Shown here: positions 1 through 56,085 of the stretch, in pieces | Layout of the letters: each line of letters starts with the position of its first letter | How positions within the stretch are numbered: position 1 is the stretch's first letter | Source: Candidatus Saccharimonadota bacterium | Lineage (GTDB): Bacteria > Patescibacteriota > Saccharimonadia > Saccharimonadales > JAICHO01 | Reading direction: 5' to 3' | Length of the DNA: 64,000 bases | Assembly: GCA_025924835.1 (NCBI GenBank) | Contig: JAICHO010000001.1 | Span: 2,553 to 66,552 of the forward strand | Position numbers and translations under genes: made by a program | Notes under the pieces: generated by a model | Told to the model about the DNA's origin: nothing | The model's database searches: none | Seen by the model: the letters and a program-made list of their open reading frames with translations, nothing else

Positions 1-2020
1 GATTGGCGACACGTTCCTCGCTCATTTCGCTGACATGCACCAGGCCGTCTTTGCCAGGCAGTATCTGTACGAACGCACCAAAATCCATAACTGTCATAAC
101 CGGTACGTTAGTATAGATTGTGCCGACTTCCGGTTCGGCCGTAATGTCACGGACCATCTTGATAGCGGCATCAATAGAGGTTTTGTCAGGACTGGCAATC
201 ATCACGGTGCCGTCATCTTTAATATCAATTTCGGCTCCCGTCTGGGCGATGATCTTGTTGATAGTTTCGCCGCCCTTGCCAATCACCTCGCGGATTTTAT
301 CGGGGTTGATCTGTATGGATTCTACGCGTGGCGCGTACGGGCTTAGCTCTGCCCGGGGGGCGGCAATCGTATCAACCATGTGTGACAAAATAAACATGCG
401 GCCGTCGCGGCTCTGTTCTAGTGCCTTTTGCAGTATCTCCACAGGCAGACCGTGGACTTTCATGTCCATCTGCAAGGCCGTTATACCCTCCGTCGTACCT
501 GTAACCTTAAAGTCCATGTCTCCGGCAAAGTCCTCGGCATCGGCAATGTCACTGAGTATGTACGGCTTATCACCGTCCAGCATTAGCCCCATGGCAATCC
601 CGGAAACGGGGCGCTTCAGCGGCACGCCGGCATCCATCAGTGCCATGCACGATGAACAGGTGGCGGCCATACTGGTGCTGCCGTTCTGGCTCATGATCTC
701 GGTTACGGAACGGATCATGTAGGGGAATTCAGCCTCGGTAGGCAGTACGGCGGTCAAAGCCCTCTCTGCCAGATAACCGTGGCCGATTTCACGACGCCCC
801 GGCGAGCCCAAGCGGCGAACTTCGCCAACGGTATAACCCGGTGCGTTGTAGTGATGCAGATACCGGCGCTCGCCTTCGCGCTCCATGGTATCAACCAGCT
901 GGACATAACTCAGCGGTGCCAAGGTTACTATATTCAATGCCTGGGTCACGCCGCGGGTAAACAAGGACGAACCATGCACACGGGGCAAGATGCCGACCTC
1001 ACTGGACAGCGGCCGGATTTCATCAAGCTTGCGGCCGTCAGGACGGATTTGGTCACTCACAATACCCTTGCGGACGTCTTTGTGTAGGGCCATGGTGAAG
1101 GCTTCGTCATAATCTGCCCGTTTAACCCCGTAGTCCTCCCCTATTTGCTCCGCAAATTCAGCGTGAAACTTGTCCCGCAAAACTTTAATTAGTTCATTAC
1201 GTTCAGGGTATGGGGTACGCAGGGCCTCCCCCAATTTACCGTCTACCCACTTTTCTACTTCAGACAGAATAGAGTCGTCTGGCAGTACTAGCTCGTATTC
1301 ATGCTTGGTCACACCGACTTTAGCGGCTAGTTCTTCTTGCAAGGCAATGGCGGGCTGCATGGCTTCAAAAGCGCTCTGCATAGCATCAGTAATCTGTTGT
1401 TCACTGACTTCGCTGGCACCAGCTTCTACCATCATAATGCCATCTTTGGTACCGGCCACCACTAAATCAAGCATACCCTTGTCTAGTTCCTCCGGCGAGG
1501 CAAATGCCTTGAATTTGCCGTCTGCCAACCCGACGCGAAGTCCAGCTACAGGACCGTCAAATGGCGCGCCAGTCAGCATAAAGGCAGCACTCATAGCAAT
1601 CATTGCCACCATGTCTGGCCGGAATCCAGGGTCCATGCTCAGTACCGTAGCCACGCCTTGCACTTCCTGCCGGTAGCCTTTGGGCCACAAGGGACGAATC
1701 GGGCGATCAATCAGGCGGCCGATCAAGATAGCGTCGTCAGATGGGCGGCCCTCGCGCTTAATAAACCGCGAGCCACTGACTTTGCCCGAAGCATACATTT
1801 TTTCTTCATAATCTATTGATAGCGGAAAATAATCCATGCCGCTAATCGAGCGGTCACTGACCATGGCCGTCCCAAGCACGACCGTGTCACCATAACGCAC
1901 CAGCACGGATGCCGAGGATCTAAAGCCGACCCGGCCTACTTCCAGGCTCAGTGTCCGGCCGCATAACTGCGTTTCTACTTTAATAATATCTTTGCCAAAG
2001 GGGTTAATGATCTGTCCCAT
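1..2020 (-). CDS. pnp: polynucleotide phosphorylase (PNPase), 3' (C-terminal) end runs off the window start
   Basis: Reverse-strand translation from ATG at 2018-2020 gives MGQIINPFGKD..., RNase PH-like domains, a KH motif IGKGGETINKI and an S1 domain near position 1. The six-frame plus ORFs here are antisense artefacts. Conserved rpsO-pnp synteny. Confidence 0.93.
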   Translation of the reverse strand, partial: MGQIINPFGKDIIKVETQLCGRTLSLEVGRVGFRSSASVLVRYGDTVVLGTAMVSDRSISGMDYFPLSIDYEEKMYASGKVSGSRFIKREGRPSDDAILIGRLIDRPIRPLWPKGYRQEVQGVATVLSMDPGFRPDMVAMIAMSAAFMLTGAPFDGPVAGLRVGLADGKFKAFASPEELDKGMLDLVVAGTKDGIMMVEAGASEVSEQQITDAMQSAFEAMQPAIALQEELAAKVGVTKHEYELVLPDDSILSEVEKWVDGKLGEALRTPYPERNELIKVLRDKFHAEFAEQIGEDYGVKRADYDEAFTMALHKDVRKGIVSDQIRPDGRKLDEIRPLSSEVGILPRVHGSSLFTRGVTQALNIVTLAPLSYVQLVDTMEREGERRYLHHYNAPGYTVGEVRRLGSPGRREIGHGYLAERALTAVLPTEAEFPYMIRSVTEIMSQNGSTSMAATCSSCMALMDAGVPLKRPVSGIAMGLMLDGDKPYILSDIADAEDFAGDMDFKVTGTTEGITALQMDMKVHGLPVEILQKALEQSRDGRMFILSHMVDTIAAPRAELSPYAPRVESIQINPDKIREVIGKGGETINKIIAQTGAEIDIKDDGTVMIASPDKTSIDAAIKMVRDITAEPEVGTIYTNVPVMTVMDFGAFVQILPGKDGLVHVSEMSEERVAN

Positions 2021-2181
2021 TTATGCCTTTCTATGAGTGGTCCTTGCTTGCAGGGTGCAAATATACTGTTGCCCTTGTGCTGCATAACGTGGCACGTGTA
2101 TATCTGGTCTCCGCAAACAAAGATGGTTATTTAATGTGCACAAGTTTATCCCGATGAGCTCGGGACTATAATCTGTACAAA

Positions 2182-2448
2182 TTACTTTCTAAGACCAAGC
2201 TTTTCTATAAGTGATAGGTAAGCTTTGCCATCCTGCTCGGCCAAGTACTTCAGCAGACGTTTGCGCTTGCCTACAGCCTGCAGTAAGCCGCGGCGAGCCA
2301 TAAAATCATGCTTGTTTAGCTTTAAATGCGCCGTCAGTTCCTTGATGCGCTCCGTAAGTATCCCTACCTGTACGGCTGGACTGCCTGTATCTTTTTTGTC
2401 TCTCTGTAAGTCAGCAACAATCTTGCTTTTCTTTTCGGTTGAAATCAT
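2182..2448 (-). CDS. rpsO: 30S ribosomal protein S15
   Basis: 88 aa with typical S15 sequence (LTERIKELTAHLK..., GLLKMVGKRRRLL-like); lies immediately upstream of pnp as in most bacteria. Confidence 0.95.
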   Translation of the reverse strand: MISTEKKSKIVADLQRDKKDTGSPAVQVGILTERIKELTAHLKLNKHDFMARRGLLQAVGKRKRLLKYLAEQDGKAYLSLIEKLGLRK

Positions 2449-2579
2449 CTATTTCCAATCTGTTAGGTAATAAGAGTTTGTGATGGCGTTACGCCTATAT
2501 TATCACAGCCGCCCCTGTTAGGCAAGTATTAATTTAGCTAGACAACTTCCAGCACGTGTTAGCTGACGAGGATTAAAGA

Positions 2580-6059: not shown

Positions 6060-7982
6060 CTACATTATGGTGGGGTCGTCACTGCCGGCAGGTGGTGCCA
6101 TAGGCGGCATCATGGGCGGCGGTACGGGTGGCGGTGCCGTAGGATCACTGACCGAGCCCGATAACTGCGCGCTGTCTTCTTGATCCTGTGTTGATGTTGG
6201 TACTACTACTGTGGGCGGCAAACCACGCCCAGACGGTACGACACTGTCAACTGCCGGAACTGTTGGGATCGGTGGTGGTAGAGGTAACGAACTATCGGCG
6301 AAAGCCGAGGCGGGAGATGTGTTAACGGCTGGGATATCACCGAGGTTTAAATCCATAGGTTGGGCGTTTAGGGATTGCACCGGCTCTAGAATTTGGGGGG
6401 TGGTAGCACTCATGGCTTGCGATACGGCATCACGGGCCGCATCCACATCAGTATCTGTGGGTATTGGCGGCTGAGGTTCGCTTGTTACCGGCTCTGTTAC
6501 TTCCATGGGCGCGCTAGATATAGATTTTTCTAAATCAGCCAGCGTCTGGGGAGCGGATTCGGTCGCAGGAAGAGTTGGTAAGGGTGGCACCGCATCGGAA
6601 GAAGACTGACCTGAATCTGCCGGAGCTGGAGCCATATCGTCAGGAGCGCTTGAAGGCTCAGGATTAAAGTCACTCAATGGCAAGGCAGGTAACGTAGCTG
6701 CTTCTGTTTCATCATCTGATGATTCAATGGCAGGAGTAGGCTCGGTCACATCTACCTGCGTTGTAGCCGCGGCGTCCTTGTCGTGGCTTAGTAGCGGTCC
6801 CCCGTTATTCAGGGGTCCCAAAATATCCGTAGCTGGTTCCAGGCTTTCGGGGTTACTGTTGGCAGTTAGAGTCCCGCCCAATGTAGGTGGCTCAAGGATA
6901 AAGCCCGAATTACCGGATTCCGGGCTTGGAGAGATTTCCTCAGTCGGTTCAGGGATTTCGGGCAACGCTGCTTCTTCCGGTTTATCACTGGGGTGAAGCC
7001 TCCCCTCGTCGTCAATGTGAATTTGCTCGGGTGGCGGAGCTGGCTCATCTTCGGCAGGAGCCTCATCCTCAACCTCAGAATGGAGCCCAAGATCTTTTAG
7101 TTGTTCGTGGTCTATTTGCAAGGTACCGGCCGGCGATTCAGCGACTGGAGGCGGCATAGGGTCACCTTCCTGGTGTTGGTCAATCTGAGGCAACTCCAGA
7201 GCTTCGTCTTCCGCCGGAACCGGAGCCGATACCGACGTAGCGGGTGGCTGCAATTGGCTGGCAACGAGTTGCTGGTTAGCTCCGGCTGACATAAGTTTGG
7301 CACTAACCTGCATTGTTTCAGAACTTGTTTTTTCGTTACTAAACCGGTTGGTTTCAGCTACGATACCGGTCAATAGCGCAGTAGACATCTGGTTATCCAG
7401 GACATCAGCCTTGATCGCCAAGCCAAGTTGCGTGAGCATTTCGCATAAACTGCTCGCCGCCTGGTCAGTCCAGTTGATACTGCCTAGCGACACATCACCC
7501 TGATTACTCATACCTATCACCGTTGCATCATGTAGAATACGTCCATGAGCCGTAATTGCCTGATCTAAATCTTCCTGTTTTTGGACGCCCAGCGCCATAA
7601 CGACATCTACATTAAAATCACCTTGGCTGAATTCCAGGTCTTTATCGCTTATTGAGGTCATGTACGGTGTAATAAAAATCTTGACCATCTGGTCTTCGAC
7701 CTTATAGCGAAGCTTGTCAGCCTTGGATTTGTCCAAAGCAATAATAAAATCACGGAGTGAGTTGGGGCTTTTTTCTAATGTTTTTTCCGGTTGCAAGAAC
7801 TGGATGGTGCTAGGAACGGCGCCACTAAAGACGGCAGTAGCATGTTTGCCCAGTTTATTAAGAAGCAGCGTTAAGCCGATAGCACCAGCTAACTGATCCA
7901 CAGACGGATTGGTGCTTACCGTTACCAATATATTTGTCGCCTGGTTAAGACGATCAGCAATCTGATTTTTTTGAGTATCCAT
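6060..7982 (-). CDS. NrnA-like DHH-family domain protein with degenerate catalytic motifs fused to a ~400-aa low-complexity Pro/Glu/Ser/Thr-rich tail; no DHHA1 domain
   Basis: N-terminal 240 aa align to the NrnA/DHH fold (LVTVSTNPSVDQLAGAIGL vs the canonical HxxPDGDAxGS; TALLTGIVAETNRFS helix), but the DHH triad is not conserved. The C-terminus is intrinsically disordered and ends PPPVPPPMMPPMAPP. Confidence 0.7.
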   Translation of the reverse strand: MDTQKNQIADRLNQATNILVTVSTNPSVDQLAGAIGLTLLLNKLGKHATAVFSGAVPSTIQFLQPEKTLEKSPNSLRDFIIALDKSKADKLRYKVEDQMVKIFITPYMTSISDKDLEFSQGDFNVDVVMALGVQKQEDLDQAITAHGRILHDATVIGMSNQGDVSLGSINWTDQAASSLCEMLTQLGLAIKADVLDNQMSTALLTGIVAETNRFSNEKTSSETMQVSAKLMSAGANQQLVASQLQPPATSVSAPVPAEDEALELPQIDQHQEGDPMPPPVAESPAGTLQIDHEQLKDLGLHSEVEDEAPAEDEPAPPPEQIHIDDEGRLHPSDKPEEAALPEIPEPTEEISPSPESGNSGFILEPPTLGGTLTANSNPESLEPATDILGPLNNGGPLLSHDKDAAATTQVDVTEPTPAIESSDDETEAATLPALPLSDFNPEPSSAPDDMAPAPADSGQSSSDAVPPLPTLPATESAPQTLADLEKSISSAPMEVTEPVTSEPQPPIPTDTDVDAARDAVSQAMSATTPQILEPVQSLNAQPMDLNLGDIPAVNTSPASAFADSSLPLPPPIPTVPAVDSVVPSGRGLPPTVVVPTSTQDQEDSAQLSGSVSDPTAPPPVPPPMMPPMAPPAGSDDPTIM

Positions 7983-8122: not shown

Positions 8123-8533
8123 ATGCCAATTATCAAATCAGCCAAAAAACGCGTACGGGTTGCCCGTAAGGCGACCGTCCGTAATGTCAAAACAAAGCGT
8201 GGCCTGAAGGTAGCGCTAAAAGCCTTCCACGCAAGCCTCACCAGTGGTAAAAAAACAGCTGCAGCCCACTCAAAAGCTCAAAGCCGTCTGGACAAAGCCG
8301 GTAAAAAAGGCGTTCTACACAAAAACAAAGTAGCCCGCAAAAAGAGCCAATTATCTGTTAAGGCAAAAGCCGCAGCCGGTGTTACCAAGCCCAAAGGCGC
8401 CAAAAAAGCCGTTACTAAAAAGCCAGCTGTCAAAAAAGCTGCCCCTAAAAAGGTCGTAGCCAAGAAAACCGTGGCTAAAAAACCGACTGCCAAAAAGTCC
8501 CCTGCCAAGAAAACAACAGCCAAGAAAAAATAG
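8123..8533 (+). CDS. rpsT: 30S ribosomal protein S20 with a Lys/Ala-rich C-terminal extension
   Basis: MPIIKSAKKRVRVARKA...VLHKNKVARKKSQL matches S20, followed by ~50 aa of AKK/PKK repeats; AGGA SD upstream. Confidence 0.9.
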   Translation: MPIIKSAKKRVRVARKATVRNVKTKRGLKVALKAFHASLTSGKKTAAAHSKAQSRLDKAGKKGVLHKNKVARKKSQLSVKAKAAAGVTKPKGAKKAVTKKPAVKKAAPKKVVAKKTVAKKPTAKKSPAKKTTAKKK

Positions 8534-8547
8534 CCTCTATCTGCTTG

Positions 8548-9471
8548 CTAACCCCGACAGATGGTTAGAATATAGGCCTGTAAGGCGTCGTCGGCGTCAG
8601 TAGAGGTAGTCTTAATATGTAGGTCTAAGTCCAGAAGCTGGCTTATTAATTGCGTGACTCGCGATAAGGCTAGTTCGCGGGCTATGTGCCGACTTTTACG
8701 GACCACGAATGGGCTAAGCTTGGCTTCTTTGGCAATTTCAGCGTCACTACGCTGCCCAGCACTAACAATTAAAGCTACGACGTGTAGCTGCCAGGCTAGC
8801 ATACCAATGATAGCCAGCGGCTCAGTCTTACCTGCCCGCTGCTCCTGATAGATTTTAAGAGCCTTTTTAGCATTACCGGCAAAGGCTGCGTCCAAAAGCT
8901 GAAAAATAGTGCTTTGGGGCGTCGGCTCCGTTAACAAATCTATGCTTGTACGGTTAATCTTGGGGCTGTAGGTCAAAAGTTTGGCTAGCTCACTGCTCAG
9001 TAATTGCTGGTTTAGCCCGAGCCGCTCAATAAGATACCCGGCGTCAGGCCGTCCCAATACGCCACCCTGGTTTTTAGCTTGCTCAGTCAGCCATTGTATT
9101 AAGCTGGCCTCGTCCGGTTAGTTAAACTCTTTATAGTCGGTGTTTTTTTGCAAATACTTATAGTAAACAGACCGTTTATCGAGTTTTGGCTCATGAATAA
9201 TAAGGTCGGTCGTTTCGGGCAGATTAGCCAGGAGCTGTTCGACATGAGCGACAAACTCTTTATTGACCCCTGGGTTCCTAAGTACTACCAGCTTTTTGCT
9301 GGCCAGAAACGGCAAGCTTTCTAACGCTTCCCGCATTTGATCATACTCAGCTTCTTCCCCATCAAAGCGCTGCAAACCCATATCGGTGTATTGCGTCACA
9401 AAGTCTTTAACCAGCCGGCTCAGTTCAGCTTGAACAAGAAAATGATTACTTCCCGTCAGCGTGGTTATCAT
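8548..9471 (-). pseudogene. holA: DNA polymerase III delta subunit (HolA) interrupted by a single in-frame TAA at 9118-9120 (N-terminal ORF 9118-9471, C-terminal ORF 8548-9057, same frame)
   Basis: The two ORF-track products are the N- and C-terminal parts of delta. Translation across the gap is continuous (...KEFN*PDEASLIQWLTEQAKNQGGVLGRPDAGYL...) with both ORFs in the same frame. Confidence 0.7.
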
Positions 9472-14987: not shown

Positions 14988-15392
14988 TTAGTCAAGACTT
15001 ATCCTGTCTACTTTCATGGGCCGCTCCAGCTTGGATGCCAAATCTTCAAGCGATAAGCCGTTAAACTCGTACGCTAGCCAGGCTGGTTTTGGGCGGGTGT
15101 ATACTACCCTTTCAATTCCAGCCCATGTCGCACAACAAAAACACATGACGCACGGCTCGTCGCTACAATACATAACGCACCCTTCCAGACGATTACTGCC
15201 GAGTTTCTGGGCGGCACTCCTAATTGCCGAGACGCCGTCATGCGCCGACGGATCGTGATTTCCGTATACATGTTCGGTTTCAGCCGCGATGACTTGGCCG
15301 TCTTGTACGATTAGGGCCGCAAAATTATACGGAGGTTGTTTGGTGCTGGCCAGACTGATTGCTTTTTTCATATAATATTGGTCGGTTTTCAT
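14988..15392 (-). CDS. TadA-like CDA-fold nucleoside deaminase domain protein with HAE->HDG substitution (catalytic Glu absent)
   Basis: Aligns unambiguously to TadA (DPSAHDGVSAIR vs DPTAHAEIMALR; PCVMC zinc motif present). Start uncertain (15392 or 15371); it overlaps the otsAB 3' end in another frame. Confidence 0.75.
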   Translation of the reverse strand: MKTDQYYMKKAISLASTKQPPYNFAALIVQDGQVIAAETEHVYGNHDPSAHDGVSAIRSAAQKLGSNRLEGCVMYCSDEPCVMCFCCATWAGIERVVYTRPKPAWLAYEFNGLSLEDLASKLERPMKVDRISLD

Positions 15393-17598
15393 GTAGATGA
15401 TTATACGCCGGGCGGCGGACGGCCGCTGGCTGCTTAAGCAGATCTTGCAACAACCGTGAAACGTCTTCATACGACCGCAGCCGATATTTAGCCAGTGTCT
15501 TGCCAGGTCCAACCTTTACGGTGTACGCATGGTCCGGCATAACCGTAAACATATCTTCATCGGTAAAATCATCGCCGATGCACAAAATAAAATCCTCGGT
15601 GCCGTACAGCCATTCTTTGACGATCTTTCCTTTGTTCGCGCTACCCATGGCCTTCAGCTCCAGGATCATATGGCCGCTATATAGGACCAAGCCATAGGTT
15701 TTTAGAATTGGGCGCAATACACGCTTTAAGATGGTGATATTTTTTTGGGCGTAATACGGTGGCGCCTTGCGGTAATGCCACACCAGCGAAGTTTCTTTTT
15801 CTTCCACTGCGGCTCCTGGGGTTTTAGCGGCGTACTTTTGGAGTGTAGGCAGCAAGATTTGTTTCCAGCCCTGGTTCAAAATTGGTTCGGCTTGCCATTT
15901 TTTGCCATACGGACGCACCAAAGCCCCATGTTCCGCGGCCAAAGTAGCTGGCAGCGCATCAAACCACTTTTCAATGTCTTTTCTGCTGCGCCCGCTAATG
16001 ATAAGCAGATTATTGCGGACTTTCCGTGTTAGTTTTTCAAGCAGCGCGAAGACTGCCTTAGTAGGCTTGGCGTGTTTCGGCTCATCAAAAAATGGTGAAA
16101 GTACCCCATCATAATCCAGAATAATAGCCGGTCGCTCGGCATTGGCGAAGTCATTCAGCAATTGCCGGTAATACTGGTCCTTTAAACGATGGGTCCTAGG
16201 CTGCAAAACCAGGCTGGAAGATTGTAAGGTTTGGGCAAATTTACGCTTCCACTTATGGATGGTGTTGTCGGCCAAATGTTTCTGCATATCGTTTAATCGT
16301 TGCTGCAATTCAGCGGGCGTCATGGTCATGGCCTTGGTCAGCCCTGCCACAAGTGAAGCCTGCTTTTGGGGGTTAACCAGCAAGGCATCGGTGAGTTCCT
16401 GGGCGGCCCCCGCCGTTTCGCTTAAAATAAGCACGCCCTTTTTATTGGCTTTGCTAGCCACGTATTCCTTGGCCATAAGGTTCATACCATCACGCAACGG
16501 GGCTATAAAGGCCACGTCAGCGAGCTGATAATAGGCCGGCATCTCTTCAAACGGAATCATTTTGTACATATAATTGACCGGCATCCAGTCAGCGGTACCA
16601 AAATCAGTGTTAATCCTGGCCACCAACTTTTCTACATCTTCTTTTAATTGCCTGTAGACGGGTATGTCCGTCCTGGAAGGCACAGCGATCATGATCATAA
16701 TTACCTTGCCATGAAACTGTGGATTGCGTTTTAAAAACTCACGGTACGCCTGCAGTCGCTCTATAAATCCCTTGCTTGGATCAAGCCGTTCACAGGCCAG
16801 AATAACTTTGTACTTGCCGAACTTTTGCTTTAATTTTTGGTAATTGGTTTTCACGATTTCAGAGTTGTTAGCTTCGGCAAACTTTTCATAATCGATACTA
16901 ATCGGAAAGTCTCCAACCTGTACTGCTCGGTTGGACAATATAACCTGGCCGGCTGATGGAATACCCACGCGCAGTTCCCCGCAGGCATCGGTAAAATTCT
17001 GCACGTATTCCTGGGTATGGAATCCAATGAGGTCAGAGCCTAGCAACCCCTTGACTATGCTTTTGCCATGCGGTAATTTGGCAAACTCCTTAATCGGAGG
17101 AAATGGGGTGTGTAGAAAAAACCCAATAACTTCGTGGGGGCGGCTGAGTCGTATCATTTGTGGCACCAGCATCAGTTGGTAATCATGCACCCATACTGTG
17201 CTGTTCGGCCTGGTTACGCCCATGACAACGTCCGCAAATAGCAAATTTACGTGTTTATAGGTTGACCAGTATTGATCGAGTTTGTCCTCCGCTACTGGCA
17301 AGCTGTGAAAAAAGGGCCATAACACTTCGTTAGAATAGCCGTTATAGAACTCGTCGGTCTGTTTCTTGGTTAGGAATACGGGATAGCAGTTGCGCTTGCG
17401 AAGTTCAGTGGTAATTTCGTGTTTCTCGTCTTCGGTCAAATCTTCTGAATTTAGGCCGGGCCAGCCAATCCAGATATTTTTTCGGCTTTTAGTGTACGAC
17501 GCCAAACCCGTCGCCAGGCCACCCACACTCTGGTGAAACTCTAGCCTTCCATGTACTTTCTTAACACTAAAAGGTAACCGATTAGAAACTATAATCAT
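15325..17598 (-). CDS. otsAB: bifunctional trehalose-6-phosphate synthase / trehalose-6-phosphate phosphatase (OtsA-OtsB fusion)
   Basis: N-terminal GT20 domain (MIIVSNRLPF, ~470 aa) fused to a C-terminal HAD T6PP domain (AIILDYDGVLSPF). Confidence 0.9.
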   Translation of the reverse strand: MIIVSNRLPFSVKKVHGRLEFHQSVGGLATGLASYTKSRKNIWIGWPGLNSEDLTEDEKHEITTELRKRNCYPVFLTKKQTDEFYNGYSNEVLWPFFHSLPVAEDKLDQYWSTYKHVNLLFADVVMGVTRPNSTVWVHDYQLMLVPQMIRLSRPHEVIGFFLHTPFPPIKEFAKLPHGKSIVKGLLGSDLIGFHTQEYVQNFTDACGELRVGIPSAGQVILSNRAVQVGDFPISIDYEKFAEANNSEIVKTNYQKLKQKFGKYKVILACERLDPSKGFIERLQAYREFLKRNPQFHGKVIMIMIAVPSRTDIPVYRQLKEDVEKLVARINTDFGTADWMPVNYMYKMIPFEEMPAYYQLADVAFIAPLRDGMNLMAKEYVASKANKKGVLILSETAGAAQELTDALLVNPQKQASLVAGLTKAMTMTPAELQQRLNDMQKHLADNTIHKWKRKFAQTLQSSSLVLQPRTHRLKDQYYRQLLNDFANAERPAIILDYDGVLSPFFDEPKHAKPTKAVFALLEKLTRKVRNNLLIISGRSRKDIEKWFDALPATLAAEHGALVRPYGKKWQAEPILNQGWKQILLPTLQKYAAKTPGAAVEEKETSLVWHYRKAPPYYAQKNITILKRVLRPILKTYGLVLYSGHMILELKAMGSANKGKIVKEWLYGTEDFILCIGDDFTDEDMFTVMPDHAYTVKVGPGKTLAKYRLRSYEDVSRLLQDLLKQPAAVRRPAYNHLHENRPILYEKSNQSGQHQTTSV

Positions 17599-43639: not shown

Positions 43640-45130
43640 CTAGAGGCTCGTATGTTGACGCAAAAAGTCCTCTGCCCGATAATAAATTATCCGTTTGTGG
43701 TCAGCATCCAGCCGCTTAAGCCGCTGGGCCATAACCCGCATCCGTGGGTTCTTACTGAGGCTTAATTCGTGTTTCTCTATAAACCGCCAAAAAAGGCCGT
43801 CCCAAATGTCAGACCAGACACCACGCTGGTAATCACTAAGGCCCAAAATATCATTACTGGGACCAACATAGGCCTTGCAATCCGCAGCATTTTCATGCGC
43901 GTCGAACTGGCTCAGACTGTTCACGTTTGGCACGACCGTCCAATCATAGGCGTCAATAAATAACTCCTGGTGCCACTGGTATATTTGAGAAGGCTCAATT
44001 TCGCATAATATCATGAGGTTACCGGCCAGTTTTCGGCGCTCGGCATCATGGGCATAGGCGTGTTCGCGCAGCTTTTTAATCATATCGTCCAAAGGCGGCA
44101 ACCCGGTTGTGCCGTTGTACCACGCACCGGTCAATTTACGATGATGATTAAATGGATTTTGTTGGCGCAGCGGAGTAGTCTGGTTCAGATATATGCCACG
44201 AACATACTCACGCCAGCCTAAAATTTGGCGAATAAAACTTTCTAAACTCTGCAGTGGCACTGGCCGCTCAGCATGCCGATCCAGAGCTGCCTGAATTACC
44301 TCTTGCGGTTTCAAGAGCCCTATATTTAGACTACCCTGCAGTAAGCTATGGTACAGCCAAGGTGATTGACCGCTCAATGTTTCCTGATACGGGCCATACT
44401 GGTCGATACGATTTTCAAGGAAATCACTGAGCCAAATCTGAGCTTCGGCGTGGTTTGTGGGCCACATAAACTCCGAGCTGCCCGGGTTATCCGGAAAGTG
44501 TTCGCCCGCCCAGGCAAGTGCCTCGGTCACAAACTTATTATCACCAAATACCGGAAAACTGGGCAGTACGACACCAGTGGGTAATTTCTGGGGCGTGGCC
44601 GCAAAGCTCCATTTGCCGCCCACAGGTTTATAGTTGTCCCCTATAAGCACGTTAAAACGTTCCCGCTGCCATTGATAAAAATCGGCAAAGGGATGTTTAT
44701 GGCGCTCATTAAAATACTGTCTTACTTCTTGCTCCTTCAAATAAAAATTTGGGCTGGGCAGAAAGGTAATAGTAGGCAGATCAGGCTGTTCGCGTCGTGC
44801 TTGCAGCAAGCGTTTTGTCAGCACGTCGTCGGTTGGATCAATGATAAAAATTTGATCAGCTTTATTCACACGCCTCAGAATATCGCCGCTTTTAGAAAAG
44901 ACGTCCAGATCAATATATTCAGTCTTAAAACCAGCCGGCCACAGGACCTCCTCGGCGTAACGCCGCATGCTGGCCCGGTGTAAAATAAGTTTTTGTTTAT
45001 GTACCCGCCGCGGAAACTCGTTATCTACTCCAAAATAAAGCGGCTCGTTAATCATGACAATGGTGTCAACCTTGGGCAGGTCACTTAAGCGATAGAGTTG
45101 GTGAGGATATAAAAGCAGGACGGATTTCAT
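43640..45130 (-). CDS. cryptochrome/photolyase-family FAD-binding protein (COG3046-like photolyase-related)
   Basis: C-terminal FAD_binding_7-like pattern TGLPPLDDMIKKL...HAYAHDAERRKLAGNLM...W. Confidence 0.65.
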   Translation of the reverse strand: MKSVLLLYPHQLYRLSDLPKVDTIVMINEPLYFGVDNEFPRRVHKQKLILHRASMRRYAEEVLWPAGFKTEYIDLDVFSKSGDILRRVNKADQIFIIDPTDDVLTKRLLQARREQPDLPTITFLPSPNFYLKEQEVRQYFNERHKHPFADFYQWQRERFNVLIGDNYKPVGGKWSFAATPQKLPTGVVLPSFPVFGDNKFVTEALAWAGEHFPDNPGSSEFMWPTNHAEAQIWLSDFLENRIDQYGPYQETLSGQSPWLYHSLLQGSLNIGLLKPQEVIQAALDRHAERPVPLQSLESFIRQILGWREYVRGIYLNQTTPLRQQNPFNHHRKLTGAWYNGTTGLPPLDDMIKKLREHAYAHDAERRKLAGNLMILCEIEPSQIYQWHQELFIDAYDWTVVPNVNSLSQFDAHENAADCKAYVGPSNDILGLSDYQRGVWSDIWDGLFWRFIEKHELSLSKNPRMRVMAQRLKRLDADHKRIIYYRAEDFLRQHTSL

Positions 45131-51048: not shown

Positions 51049-51570
51049 ATGAATGACTATATCGCCGCTCTATTGTTCTTCTTGCCAGCCGGCCTGGCCA
51101 ATATGACACCGCCTTTAGCCAATAAAATTCCGATACTCAACCAGTGGAAAACGCCGTTAGACTTTGGCAAAACCTGGCGCGGCAAAAGACTGTTCGGCAA
51201 TAATAAAACCTGGCGCGGGCTAGTGAGCGGCACAATTGTAGGCGGAGTTACTGCCATGATAATCAGCAAGTTAAATACCAATACCGTCGTCACTCTGGCA
51301 CCGTTTTTAGTGGGGAGTCTGTTGGGGCTGGGAGCTTTGATGGGTGACGCCGTAGAAAGTTTCTTTAAACGCCAACGAGGCTTTAAGCCTGGCCAGTCGT
51401 GGTTTCCCTTTGATCAAATTGATTATATCTTAGGCGGTCTGCTCATTATTGCGCCCGTAATACGTCTGCCGTTGTGGGCAGGCTTCACGATTGCTATCGT
51501 CTATTTTGGATTGCACCTGCTGACGGCCTATCTTGGATACTTGCTTAAACTCAAAGACAGCCCCATCTGA
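51049..51570 (+). CDS. CDP-archaeol synthase (CarS)-like CTP-transferase family membrane protein
   Basis: LPAGLANMTPPLA...GKTWRG...NKTWRGL pattern matches the CarS/DUF46 family. Starts 1 nt after the PHP gene stop. Confidence 0.7.
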   Translation: MNDYIAALLFFLPAGLANMTPPLANKIPILNQWKTPLDFGKTWRGKRLFGNNKTWRGLVSGTIVGGVTAMIISKLNTNTVVTLAPFLVGSLLGLGALMGDAVESFFKRQRGFKPGQSWFPFDQIDYILGGLLIIAPVIRLPLWAGFTIAIVYFGLHLLTAYLGYLLKLKDSPI

Positions 51571-53992: not shown

Positions 53993-54026
53993 ATGAGGGA
54001 ACCTATCCCGGTTCCCTCATTTTTTT
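53993..54026 (+). terminator. perfect 11-bp stem-loop (AUGAGGGAACC/GGUUCCCUCAU) + T6 oriented for the plus strand, abutting the groEL stop codon
   Basis: Read directly; the T-tract overlaps the groEL stop. There is no plus-strand gene upstream. Confidence 0.35.
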
Positions 54027-55671
54027 ACATCCCCATCATCCCACCCATGTCAGGCGCCCCACCGGCAGGAGCCTTAGGCTCAGGCACTTCTACCACTAAA
54101 GCACCCATTGTCATGCTAGTGCCAGCAATGGATACGGCATTTTGCAGTGCCTCTTTAGTGACACGAGCCGGGTCAATTACACCCACACTTCTCAGGTCAA
54201 CTAGTGCCGTCGGACTATTGACGTTTACCCCAAAACCAGGCTTGCCTGCTTTTACTTGGGGCAACCATTCATCAGCGTTCAAGCCGGCATTGGTCAGCAA
54301 GATACGGAAAGGCTGTTCCAAGGCCTTTTTCAACAGTTGTCGGCCAGCCGTTACCGAGTCATCATCGTCATCCGTGGTAATTGTAGAGCTTAGGTTAATC
54401 AGCGTGACACCACCACCAGCTACAATGCCTTCGTCCAGAGCCGCCTTCACAGCTGCTACGGCATCATCAACCCGGAATTTCTTTTCTTCAATCTCGGTTT
54501 CGGTAGCACCGCCAACTTTAATAACGGCAACCTTACCGGATAGCGCCGCCCGGCGCTTTTCCAGGTTTTCTTTGTCGTACTCGCTGGTCGCGGACTTAAT
54601 CTGGGCATTAATCTGGTCAACGCGGGCTTGAATTTCAGCGGCGGAGCCAGCACCCTCGATAATGGTTGTTTCATCTTTAGTAACCAACACTTTACGAGCC
54701 GTCCCCACTACGTCCATATCGACGTTTTCAAAGGTCATGCCGCGGTCTTCAGTTATTACCTCCGCACCCGTCAAAACGGCAATGTCGTTCAGGACGTCTT
54801 TGCGACGGTCACCAAACGCCGGTGCCTTAATGGCGGTCGTGTTAAAGACGCCCTTCAGCTTGTTCAGGATTAGCGTCCCCAAGGCTTCGCCTTCAACATC
54901 TTCGGCAATCAGCACCAGATCTTTCTTGCCGGCTTGCGCCAGCTTTTCTAGCAGCGGCAAAAATTCCTGGATCGAAGTAATCTTTTTATCGGTGATAACT
55001 ACGGCCGGCTTTTCTATTACCGATTCCATGCGGGCAGCATCCGTCACCATGTACGGGCTGACAAACCCGCGATCAAACGTAAAGCCTTCAACTACCTCGC
55101 TTTCCAGCGCCAACCCTTGGCCTTCTTCTACTGTTACCACCCCGTCTTTGCCGACTTTTTCAATCACATCGGCAATCAGGTTGCCGATTTCGGCGTCGCC
55201 GGCACTAATGGTTGCTACCTCTGCTACGCGGGACTTCTTGCCTTTGATATCTTCGGCCAGACCACCCAGTTTGGCCTGTACTTCATGGGCGGCGGCCTCA
55301 AGGCCCTTGCGTAGCAGCATCGGGTTATGACCAGCGGCAATAAGCTTATTTGCCTCATTCAAAATATGATACGTCAGCACCGTTACGGTGGTTGTACCGT
55401 CACCAGCCACATCGTTCATTTTGCTAGCGGCCTGCTTAATTAACTCGGCACCAACTTTGTAGCCCAATGTCTCGTCGTCAACGTCAGCCAGTTCTACGCC
55501 CTTGGCTACGGTTACGCCGTCATGCGTAACCGTCGGGTTGCCGTAACTCTTGCTAATAATAACGTTGCGTCCCTTAGGCCCCATCGTCGTCTTCACCGCG
55601 TCATATAAAATCTGTGCCCCGCCCAGCACCCGGCGCCGGGCATCATCATCATAAAAAACTTTCTTTGCCAT
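54025..55671 (-). CDS. groEL: chaperonin GroEL
   Basis: 548 aa with AAVEEGIVAGGG-like regions and a C-terminal GGMMGM tail. Confidence 0.97.
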   Translation of the reverse strand: MAKKVFYDDDARRRVLGGAQILYDAVKTTMGPKGRNVIISKSYGNPTVTHDGVTVAKGVELADVDDETLGYKVGAELIKQAASKMNDVAGDGTTTVTVLTYHILNEANKLIAAGHNPMLLRKGLEAAAHEVQAKLGGLAEDIKGKKSRVAEVATISAGDAEIGNLIADVIEKVGKDGVVTVEEGQGLALESEVVEGFTFDRGFVSPYMVTDAARMESVIEKPAVVITDKKITSIQEFLPLLEKLAQAGKKDLVLIAEDVEGEALGTLILNKLKGVFNTTAIKAPAFGDRRKDVLNDIAVLTGAEVITEDRGMTFENVDMDVVGTARKVLVTKDETTIIEGAGSAAEIQARVDQINAQIKSATSEYDKENLEKRRAALSGKVAVIKVGGATETEIEEKKFRVDDAVAAVKAALDEGIVAGGGVTLINLSSTITTDDDDDSVTAGRQLLKKALEQPFRILLTNAGLNADEWLPQVKAGKPGFGVNVNSPTALVDLRSVGVIDPARVTKEALQNAVSIAGTSMTMGALVVEVPEPKAPAGGAPDMGGMMGM

Positions 55672-55814
55672 TATTTCTTCTCCTTACGTGTCAAGTTATC
55701 AATCTTTTCTTCCAGTCGTTTAACTGCTTCGTCAATTCTTGCTACCTTTGTTTCTACTCTCGTGAAGCCAATCCAGAAAATAACAAAGATTATAAAGCCG
55801 AGTATTCCATCCAT
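55671..55814 (-). CDS. small membrane protein (47 aa) encoded between groES and groEL
   Basis: MDGILGFIIFVIFWIGFTRVETKVARIDEAVKRLEEKIDNLTRKEKK. Its stop overlaps the groEL start as TAATG. Not in the ORF track because it is <60 aa. Confidence 0.45.
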   Translation of the reverse strand: MDGILGFIIFVIFWIGFTRVETKVARIDEAVKRLEEKIDNLTRKEKK

Positions 55815-55818
55815 AGTA

Positions 55819-56085
55819 TTACTTAACCGTCGCGAAGATATTTTCTGCCTTAATCAGAATGTATTCCGAGCCGCCGTATTTGACGACTTCGTTACTGTAG
55901 CCACCGTAAATAATCCGGTCGCCGACCTTAACATCGTCAACTTTCTTACCGACGGCCAGAACTTTAGCCACTTTGGGCTTTTCCTGAGCGTTACCCGGCA
56001 AGTACAAGCCGCTGGCGGTTTTGGTTTCGGCCTCTTCCTGCTGGGCGACTACATAGTCTGCCAATGGATTAATAGGTACAGACAT
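55819..56085 (-). CDS. groES: co-chaperonin GroES
   Basis: 88 aa with a typical GroES mobile loop and beta-barrel sequence. Confidence 0.95.
   Translation of the reverse strand: MSVPINPLADYVVAQQEEAETKTASGLYLPGNAQEKPKVAKVLAVGKKVDDVKVGDRIIYGGYSNEVVKYGGSEYILIKAENIFATVK

Follow-up and report, generated by a model that had tools for sequence, protein, structure and literature searches.

The delta subunit of the clamp loader (HolA) is normally essential, and domain I of the Escherichia coli protein binds the beta clamp. The family is described by the NCBIfam equivalog TIGR01128 and by solved structures from Bacillus subtilis (3ZH9_B) and E. coli (1JQJ and 1JR3), and a holA gene is expected to be one uninterrupted ORF of ~300 amino acids. 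Two kinds of described system bear on a gene of this family that is interrupted by an in-frame stop. In Salmonella, certain pseudogenes still yield protein; these pseudo-pseudogenes are mostly non-essential genes in which a C>T or G>A transition created the stop, the stops that are read through are enriched in C at positions -1 and +4, and most of the events involve UAG (Feng et al. 2022, PMC9122581). Programmed readthrough and recoding include selenocysteine insertion at UGA with a SECIS element, as well as phage and viral cases. Outright loss of the gene is a possibility only among extremely reduced endosymbionts of insects, such as some Portiera, which lack holA, dnaN, and dnaX (PMC12911140).

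The holA gene analyzed here lies in a stretch of DNA of 64 kb, referred to in its entirety as the window. It resembles described HolA in its full-length equivalog match, in the presence of both Pfam domains of the family, and in a predicted architecture of three domains with a mostly helical C-terminal part, but its frame is broken by a TAA at codon 118, whereas all 92 of the relatives compared are unbroken. It shares with the Salmonella pseudo-pseudogenes (PMC9122581) an otherwise whole gene interrupted by one in-frame stop and a cytosine on either side of that stop, although it differs in having UAA as the stop, a G>T transversion as the presumed change, and a normally essential gene as its setting, and the case is known from sequence alone. 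The likeness to programmed readthrough or recoding extends to an in-frame stop followed by conserved coding and to nothing more, as the stop is not conserved, is UAA rather than UGA or UAG, and is accompanied by neither a downstream structure nor an Rfam element.

Results

The holA frame and its interruption

The sequence-only reading had described N- and C-terminal pieces of a delta subunit lying in the same frame and parted by one TAA, and its coordinates and the peptide it quoted both proved exact (Table 1). Translated from the minus strand (9471..8548), the sequence across the stop is ...TDYKEFN-stop-PDEASLIQWLTEQAKNQGGVLGRPDAGYL..., and the tryptic peptide spanning codon 118 is EFN-x-PDEASLIQWLTEQAK, where x is the residue at the stop position. 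The ORF list splits the gene into 9118..9471 (117 aa) and 8548..9057 (169 aa, from a TTG), and the frame is open from 9117, upstream of this listed start. The TTG (9055-9057), 21 codons after the TAA, has no rival nearby as a canonical restart codon in the holA frame. The stretch between the two, codons 119-138, makes up the beginning of the first domain II helix and includes the family-invariant residues L124 and W127, and 14 of the 21 residues at 119-139 are identical to those of the homologue P0001; judged from this alignment, the delta-like coding between the TAA and the TTG is far beyond chance. The single uninterrupted ORF of ~300 aa expected of HolA is thus not what is found here, as a TAA breaks the frame at codon 118.

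Table 1. Coordinates of the holA gene and its parts in the window
Feature	Position	Strand	Evidence or remark
holA (DNA polymerase III delta subunit), complete frame	9471..8548	minus	307 sense codons plus an internal TAA
Codons 1-117, delta domain I	9121..9471	minus	PF06144, residues 5-116 on profile positions 3-123 of 124
Premature TAA, codon 118	9118-9120	minus	Sequence; context AAC-TAA-C
Codons 119-138, open delta-like stretch 3' of the stop	9058..9117	minus	Alignment; 20 codons
Codons 139-307, rest of domain II and C-terminal collar domain	8551..9057	minus	PF21694, E 7e-21
Natural holA terminator TAG	8548-8550	minus	Translation

The identification of the gene as holA, also proposed in that reading, is borne out by a single match that runs across the stop. 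When the stop was written as X in the protein used for the profile search, the TIGR01128 score was 220.4 bits (E 3.5e-65; cut-off 80), and the match was unbroken, with residues 4-304 aligned to profile positions 3-316 of 316. At the level of domains, PF06144 (delta N-terminal domain) matched the first piece (E 3.4e-16), its profile ending at residue 116, two residues short of the TAA, and PF21694 (delta C-terminal domain) matched the second. Searching 5.8 billion proteins gave 2,941 relatives, and the 120 matches listed were 284-320 aa in length, mostly ~300-306, with a few that were shorter at the N terminus. Few of these 120 carried names, and among those that did, Saccharimonadales and DNA polymerase III subunit delta were the prevailing labels. 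The best protein match was 80% identical over residues 1-305, and the orthologues are uninterrupted proteins of 306 aa. The family profile also matched the B. subtilis delta subunit (3ZH9_B, E 1.7e-27) and that of E. coli (1JQJ, chain 1JQJ_C, E 1.5e-07). By these matches the gene is an ordinary HolA, a family marked by binding and opening of the beta clamp within the DnaX complex.

An AlphaFold2 model of the product (mean pLDDT 89) consists of an alpha/beta domain I (residues 1-115) followed by helical domains. The last strand of domain I comprises residues 112-115 and the first helix of domain II residues 121-134, so that codon 118 falls within the loop (116-120) that joins the two domains. 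Since the model places the stop in this inter-domain loop, a clean truncation would release a folded domain I, and domain I is the sole product if termination at the TAA is complete.

The neighbors of holA are the usual ones, fpg/mutM upstream and rpsT, which is convergent, downstream. The ORF layout around the gene in its closest relative, L003, matches this arrangement when the flanking ORFs are compared by layout only, with a 290-aa ORF upstream, an intact holA of 306 aa, and a 160-aa convergent ORF downstream. The rpsT gene itself (ribosomal protein S20; window 8123-8533, plus strand) encodes 136 aa, of which residues 4-81 form the S20 domain and the following ~55 aa a Lys/Ala-rich, histone-H1-like tail with AKKxxAKK repeats, and its stop lies 14 nt from that of holA.

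Codon 118 and the downstream sequence in relatives

For comparison, holA was collected from 92 related loci in GTDB species-representative genomes and in metagenomes. Codon 118 was GAG in 46, GAA in 22, CAG in 6, GAT in 5, CAA in 2, and another sense codon in the remaining 11, and none of the 92 had a stop at this column or anywhere else inside holA. The comparison of orthologues at this site, which the sequence-only reading had called for, therefore gave a sense codon in every relative and a codon for Glu (GAA or GAG) in 68 of the 92. When 33 close homologues were aligned, at least 90% of them had Glu at this position; the other residues found there among relatives were Q, K, D, P, G, V, M, and S. 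None of the 92 relatives had a split holA. No conspecific holA was found, the best matches reaching 80% in the scan of GTDB species representatives and 72% in that of metagenomes, and a search for exact matches to five window proteins (the N and C fragments, Fpg, S20, and S15) returned none. As the closest relative, L003 (80% identity), has GAA at this codon, the lesion would most simply be GAA>TAA, a single G>T change that corresponds to C>A at plus-strand base 9120.

The sequence 3' of the stop shows no decay. All family-invariant residues in the alignment are kept there, from L124, W127, R150, and G152 through D294 and D295. Constraint was gauged by a relative-rate count, with P0001 as the sister and 32 other homologues as the reference, in place of dN/dS, synonymous sites being saturated at 80% amino-acid identity. 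Before the stop there were 7 lineage-specific replacements in the window gene against 8 in the sister, and after it (codons 119-307) 13 against 13. With all invariants kept and replacements so evenly matched, the stop would have to be very young or unreal, or the downstream part still under selection. A decaying pseudogene was rejected on these grounds, the single lesion, the 13 replacements on each branch, and the retained invariants all speaking against it.

Signals around the stop and other genes of the window

Several searches for a signal that could act at the site were negative. ARAGORN found no tRNA gene in the 64-kb window, and hence no suppressor tRNA within it, and no Rfam family reached its gathering score in the same 64 kb. 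No promoter-like site was found between 8300 and 9800, and the 121 nt around the stop fold no better than shuffled sequences (z = +0.48). The stop stands in the mildly leaky context C-UAA-C, with cytosine at both -1 and +4. A Shine-Dalgarno-like GGGTGG precedes the TTG at 9057 and forms an anti-Shine-Dalgarno duplex of -6.7 kcal/mol, a value reached by ~10% of random positions; the motif is no more than the Gly-Gly codons. Starting at this TTG would drop 21 residues, including the invariant L124 and W127.

Three mechanisms by which the frame might be bridged or divided were considered and rejected. A ribosome hop in which tRNA-Asn moves from AAC to the overlapping AAC (A-AC-U-AAC) enters the +1 frame and meets a TAA five codons on. 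Programmed readthrough was dismissed on the grounds that the stop is absent at this site in all 92 relatives. An evolved split gene lacks a good start or ribosome binding site, a start at the TTG would lose L124 and W127, and the gene is split in 0 of the 92 relatives.

TAA is a regular terminator in this DNA. Among 66 non-overlapping ORFs of at least 90 aa, 36 end in TAA, 21 in TAG, and 9 in TGA, and with holA left out, TAA terminates 35 of the 65 others, which agrees with the earlier statement that other genes end in TAA and that recoding is unlikely. Coding density is 92% over the 64 kb, and 29 same-frame neighboring open segments of at least 60 codons are present. Pfam scans covered the plausible same-frame pairs and those overlapping ORF pairs in which a frameshift might be concealed. 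All of the other pairs checked are distinct genes; partners with a Pfam hit match different families, mostly over nearly the whole profile, and several partners are without any Pfam hit. Examples of such separate genes are NUDIX/YecM, PHP/CarS-like, HAD/photolyase-related, OtsAB/deaminase, and TruB, and in several of the genes that end in TAA (NUDIX/YecM, PHP/CarS, and HAD), the Pfam match reaches the end of the profile and the next gene follows immediately. Long ORFs of 548-935 aa are intact. The check for further genes with an in-frame TAA, also raised at the outset, found none in the window, and no second interrupted gene of any kind was seen in the 64 kb besides holA. A frame apparently split by TGA upstream of groEL was considered as a broken groES and rejected, as groES is intact in another frame.

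Other features of the window

Many genes of the window, with starts such as 41874, 38309, 23146, and 22322, have no Shine-Dalgarno match, and in some a TATAAT-like box precedes the ATG by a mere 5-10 nt. The combination of starts lacking a Shine-Dalgarno sequence with such close boxes suggests that the organism may use leaderless or very short-leader mRNAs.

Between groES (55819-56085) and groEL (54025-55671), the 147-nt spacer is filled by an ORF of 47 aa (55671-55814, minus strand) with a hydrophobic helix followed by a charged helix, which may represent a genuine small membrane protein encoded within the groESL operon. At 6060-7982 (minus strand), a protein of 640 aa without a Pfam hit has an ordinary-looking N-terminal part of ~230 aa and then ~400 aa of low complexity rich in Pro, Ala, Ser, and Glu. 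At the start of the window (1-2450, minus strand), rpsO (S15) at 2182-2448 is followed by a high-GC stretch (54%). The plus-strand ORFs in this stretch look like antisense artefacts, and a gene on the minus strand probably extends past the start of the window, perhaps pnp, to judge from the usual rpsO-pnp order. Also worth a glance as gene content of a small-genome Saccharibacteria-like organism are a CarS-like protein of the CDP-archaeol synthase family (51049-51570, plus strand), a fused trehalose-6-phosphate synthase/phosphatase OtsA-OtsB of 757 aa (15325-17598, minus strand), and a photolyase-related DPRP/FAD-binding protein (43640-45130, minus strand).

Discussion

The most plausible account of this locus is a single-base nonsense change that has left no mark on the rest of the gene. 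The gene would be an ordinary, single-copy-type holA of a Saccharimonadales-like (Saccharibacteria/TM7) bacterium in which one substitution put TAA in place of the GAA of a conserved glutamate at codon 118, where the linker joins domain I to domain II. The TAA may be missing from the living majority population, either as a sequencing or consensus error or as a minority or lethal allele caught by the assembly, or it may be so recent that no further decay has followed. It is the absence of any evolutionary trace of the change that points to these two outcomes, a stop that is absent from the majority population or one that is very recent. In support of this account, the TAA is the sole lesion, the gene is otherwise perfect, and the TIGR01128 match runs across the stop. 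Two points count against the error reading: good assemblies seldom contain substitution errors in their consensus, and the rest of the window looks clean. Taken jointly, however, an artefact of sequencing, assembly, or consensus, a captured minority allele, and a very recent mutation are likely to include the true explanation, and we infer that the TAA is artefactual or transient. The sequence-only reading had put error, population variant, and recent nonsense mutation forward as the leading explanations; the sense codon in each of the 92 relatives supports them, and their ranking was sound. Stop-codon readthrough, the remaining option of that reading, has nothing positive on its side apart from the mildly leaky C-UAA-C context.

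The opposing view, that the TAA is real and has reached fixation in a Saccharibacteria lineage that remains viable, with delta made by readthrough of UAA or as two polypeptides split at the linker between domains I and II, is improbable as a whole. Its readthrough form, for which we hold out little likelihood, supposes that the stop is tolerated by leaky termination, with near-cognate tRNAs (Gln, Lys, Tyr, or Glu) now and then reading UAA; a little full-length delta would be made, which would suffice for an episymbiont that grows slowly, and free domain I would be in excess. The part of the gene 3' of the stop is fully preserved, as such a mechanism would have it, and the residues likely to be inserted should be acceptable, as relatives carry E, Q, and K at the site. 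Indeed, with column 118 accepting E, Q, K, D, P, G, V, M, and S, a readthrough product would probably work. However, UAA is the tightest stop, and its basal readthrough in bacteria is, as a matter of general knowledge, very low, so that a tiny fraction of the normal yield would result. TAA is moreover the preferred terminator in the window, none of the 92 relatives has the stop, and no stimulatory RNA structure surrounds it. The context AAC-UAA-C fits the enrichment of C at -1 and +4 among Salmonella read-through stops, but in the same data UAA is the least represented of the stops read through, which are mainly UAG (PMC9122581). The form with delta in two pieces is very unlikely. It holds that domain I (117 aa) is released, that domains II and III are restarted at the TTG at 9057 or at a non-canonical codon nearer the stop, and that the pieces associate non-covalently within the clamp loader. 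The position of the stop, in the modelled loop 116-120 and at the end of the PF06144 profile, suits such a division, and an in-frame TTG with an SD-like GGGTGG before it lies 21 codons on. Against this, a restart there costs 21 residues, two of them the invariant L124 and W127, the SD-like motif is accounted for by Gly-Gly codons and about one random position in ten does as well, the gene has no internal promoter, and no split holA occurs among the 92 relatives; from general knowledge, the clamp-opening domain must also be tethered to the collar for loading.

It is just as hard to credit that holA is a newly dead pseudogene whose role is filled by another delta gene in the genome or is no longer needed. 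The absence of holA, dnaN, and dnaX from some Portiera genomes offers a precedent for dispensability (PMC12911140), but the window contains no second holA in its 64 kb, the gene is intact at all 92 related loci, and its one lesion is not accompanied by accelerated change. Nothing specific on interrupted holA or on Saccharibacteria pseudogenes was found in the literature. The decoding of TAA as an amino acid, through reassignment of the code or a dedicated ochre-suppressor tRNA, has the in-frame TAA itself in its favor and nothing further; with TAA terminating 35 of the 65 other ORFs, no other window gene carrying an in-frame TAA, and no tRNA gene in the window, reassignment is effectively refuted.

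It follows that holA is not a programmed recoding site, does not reflect a change in the genetic code, and is not an evolved split gene, and on present evidence, the single-base stop is no new biology. Its practical importance is as a quality flag: annotation pipelines will call the gene a pseudogene, and surveys of completeness or of essential genes in this genome would wrongly score delta as missing. Should the TAA be fixed in a growing population after all, the locus would show, as few natural ones do, an essential replication gene that relies on ochre readthrough or on a split protein, and it would hold moderate interest for the study of translation fidelity in episymbionts with reduced genomes.
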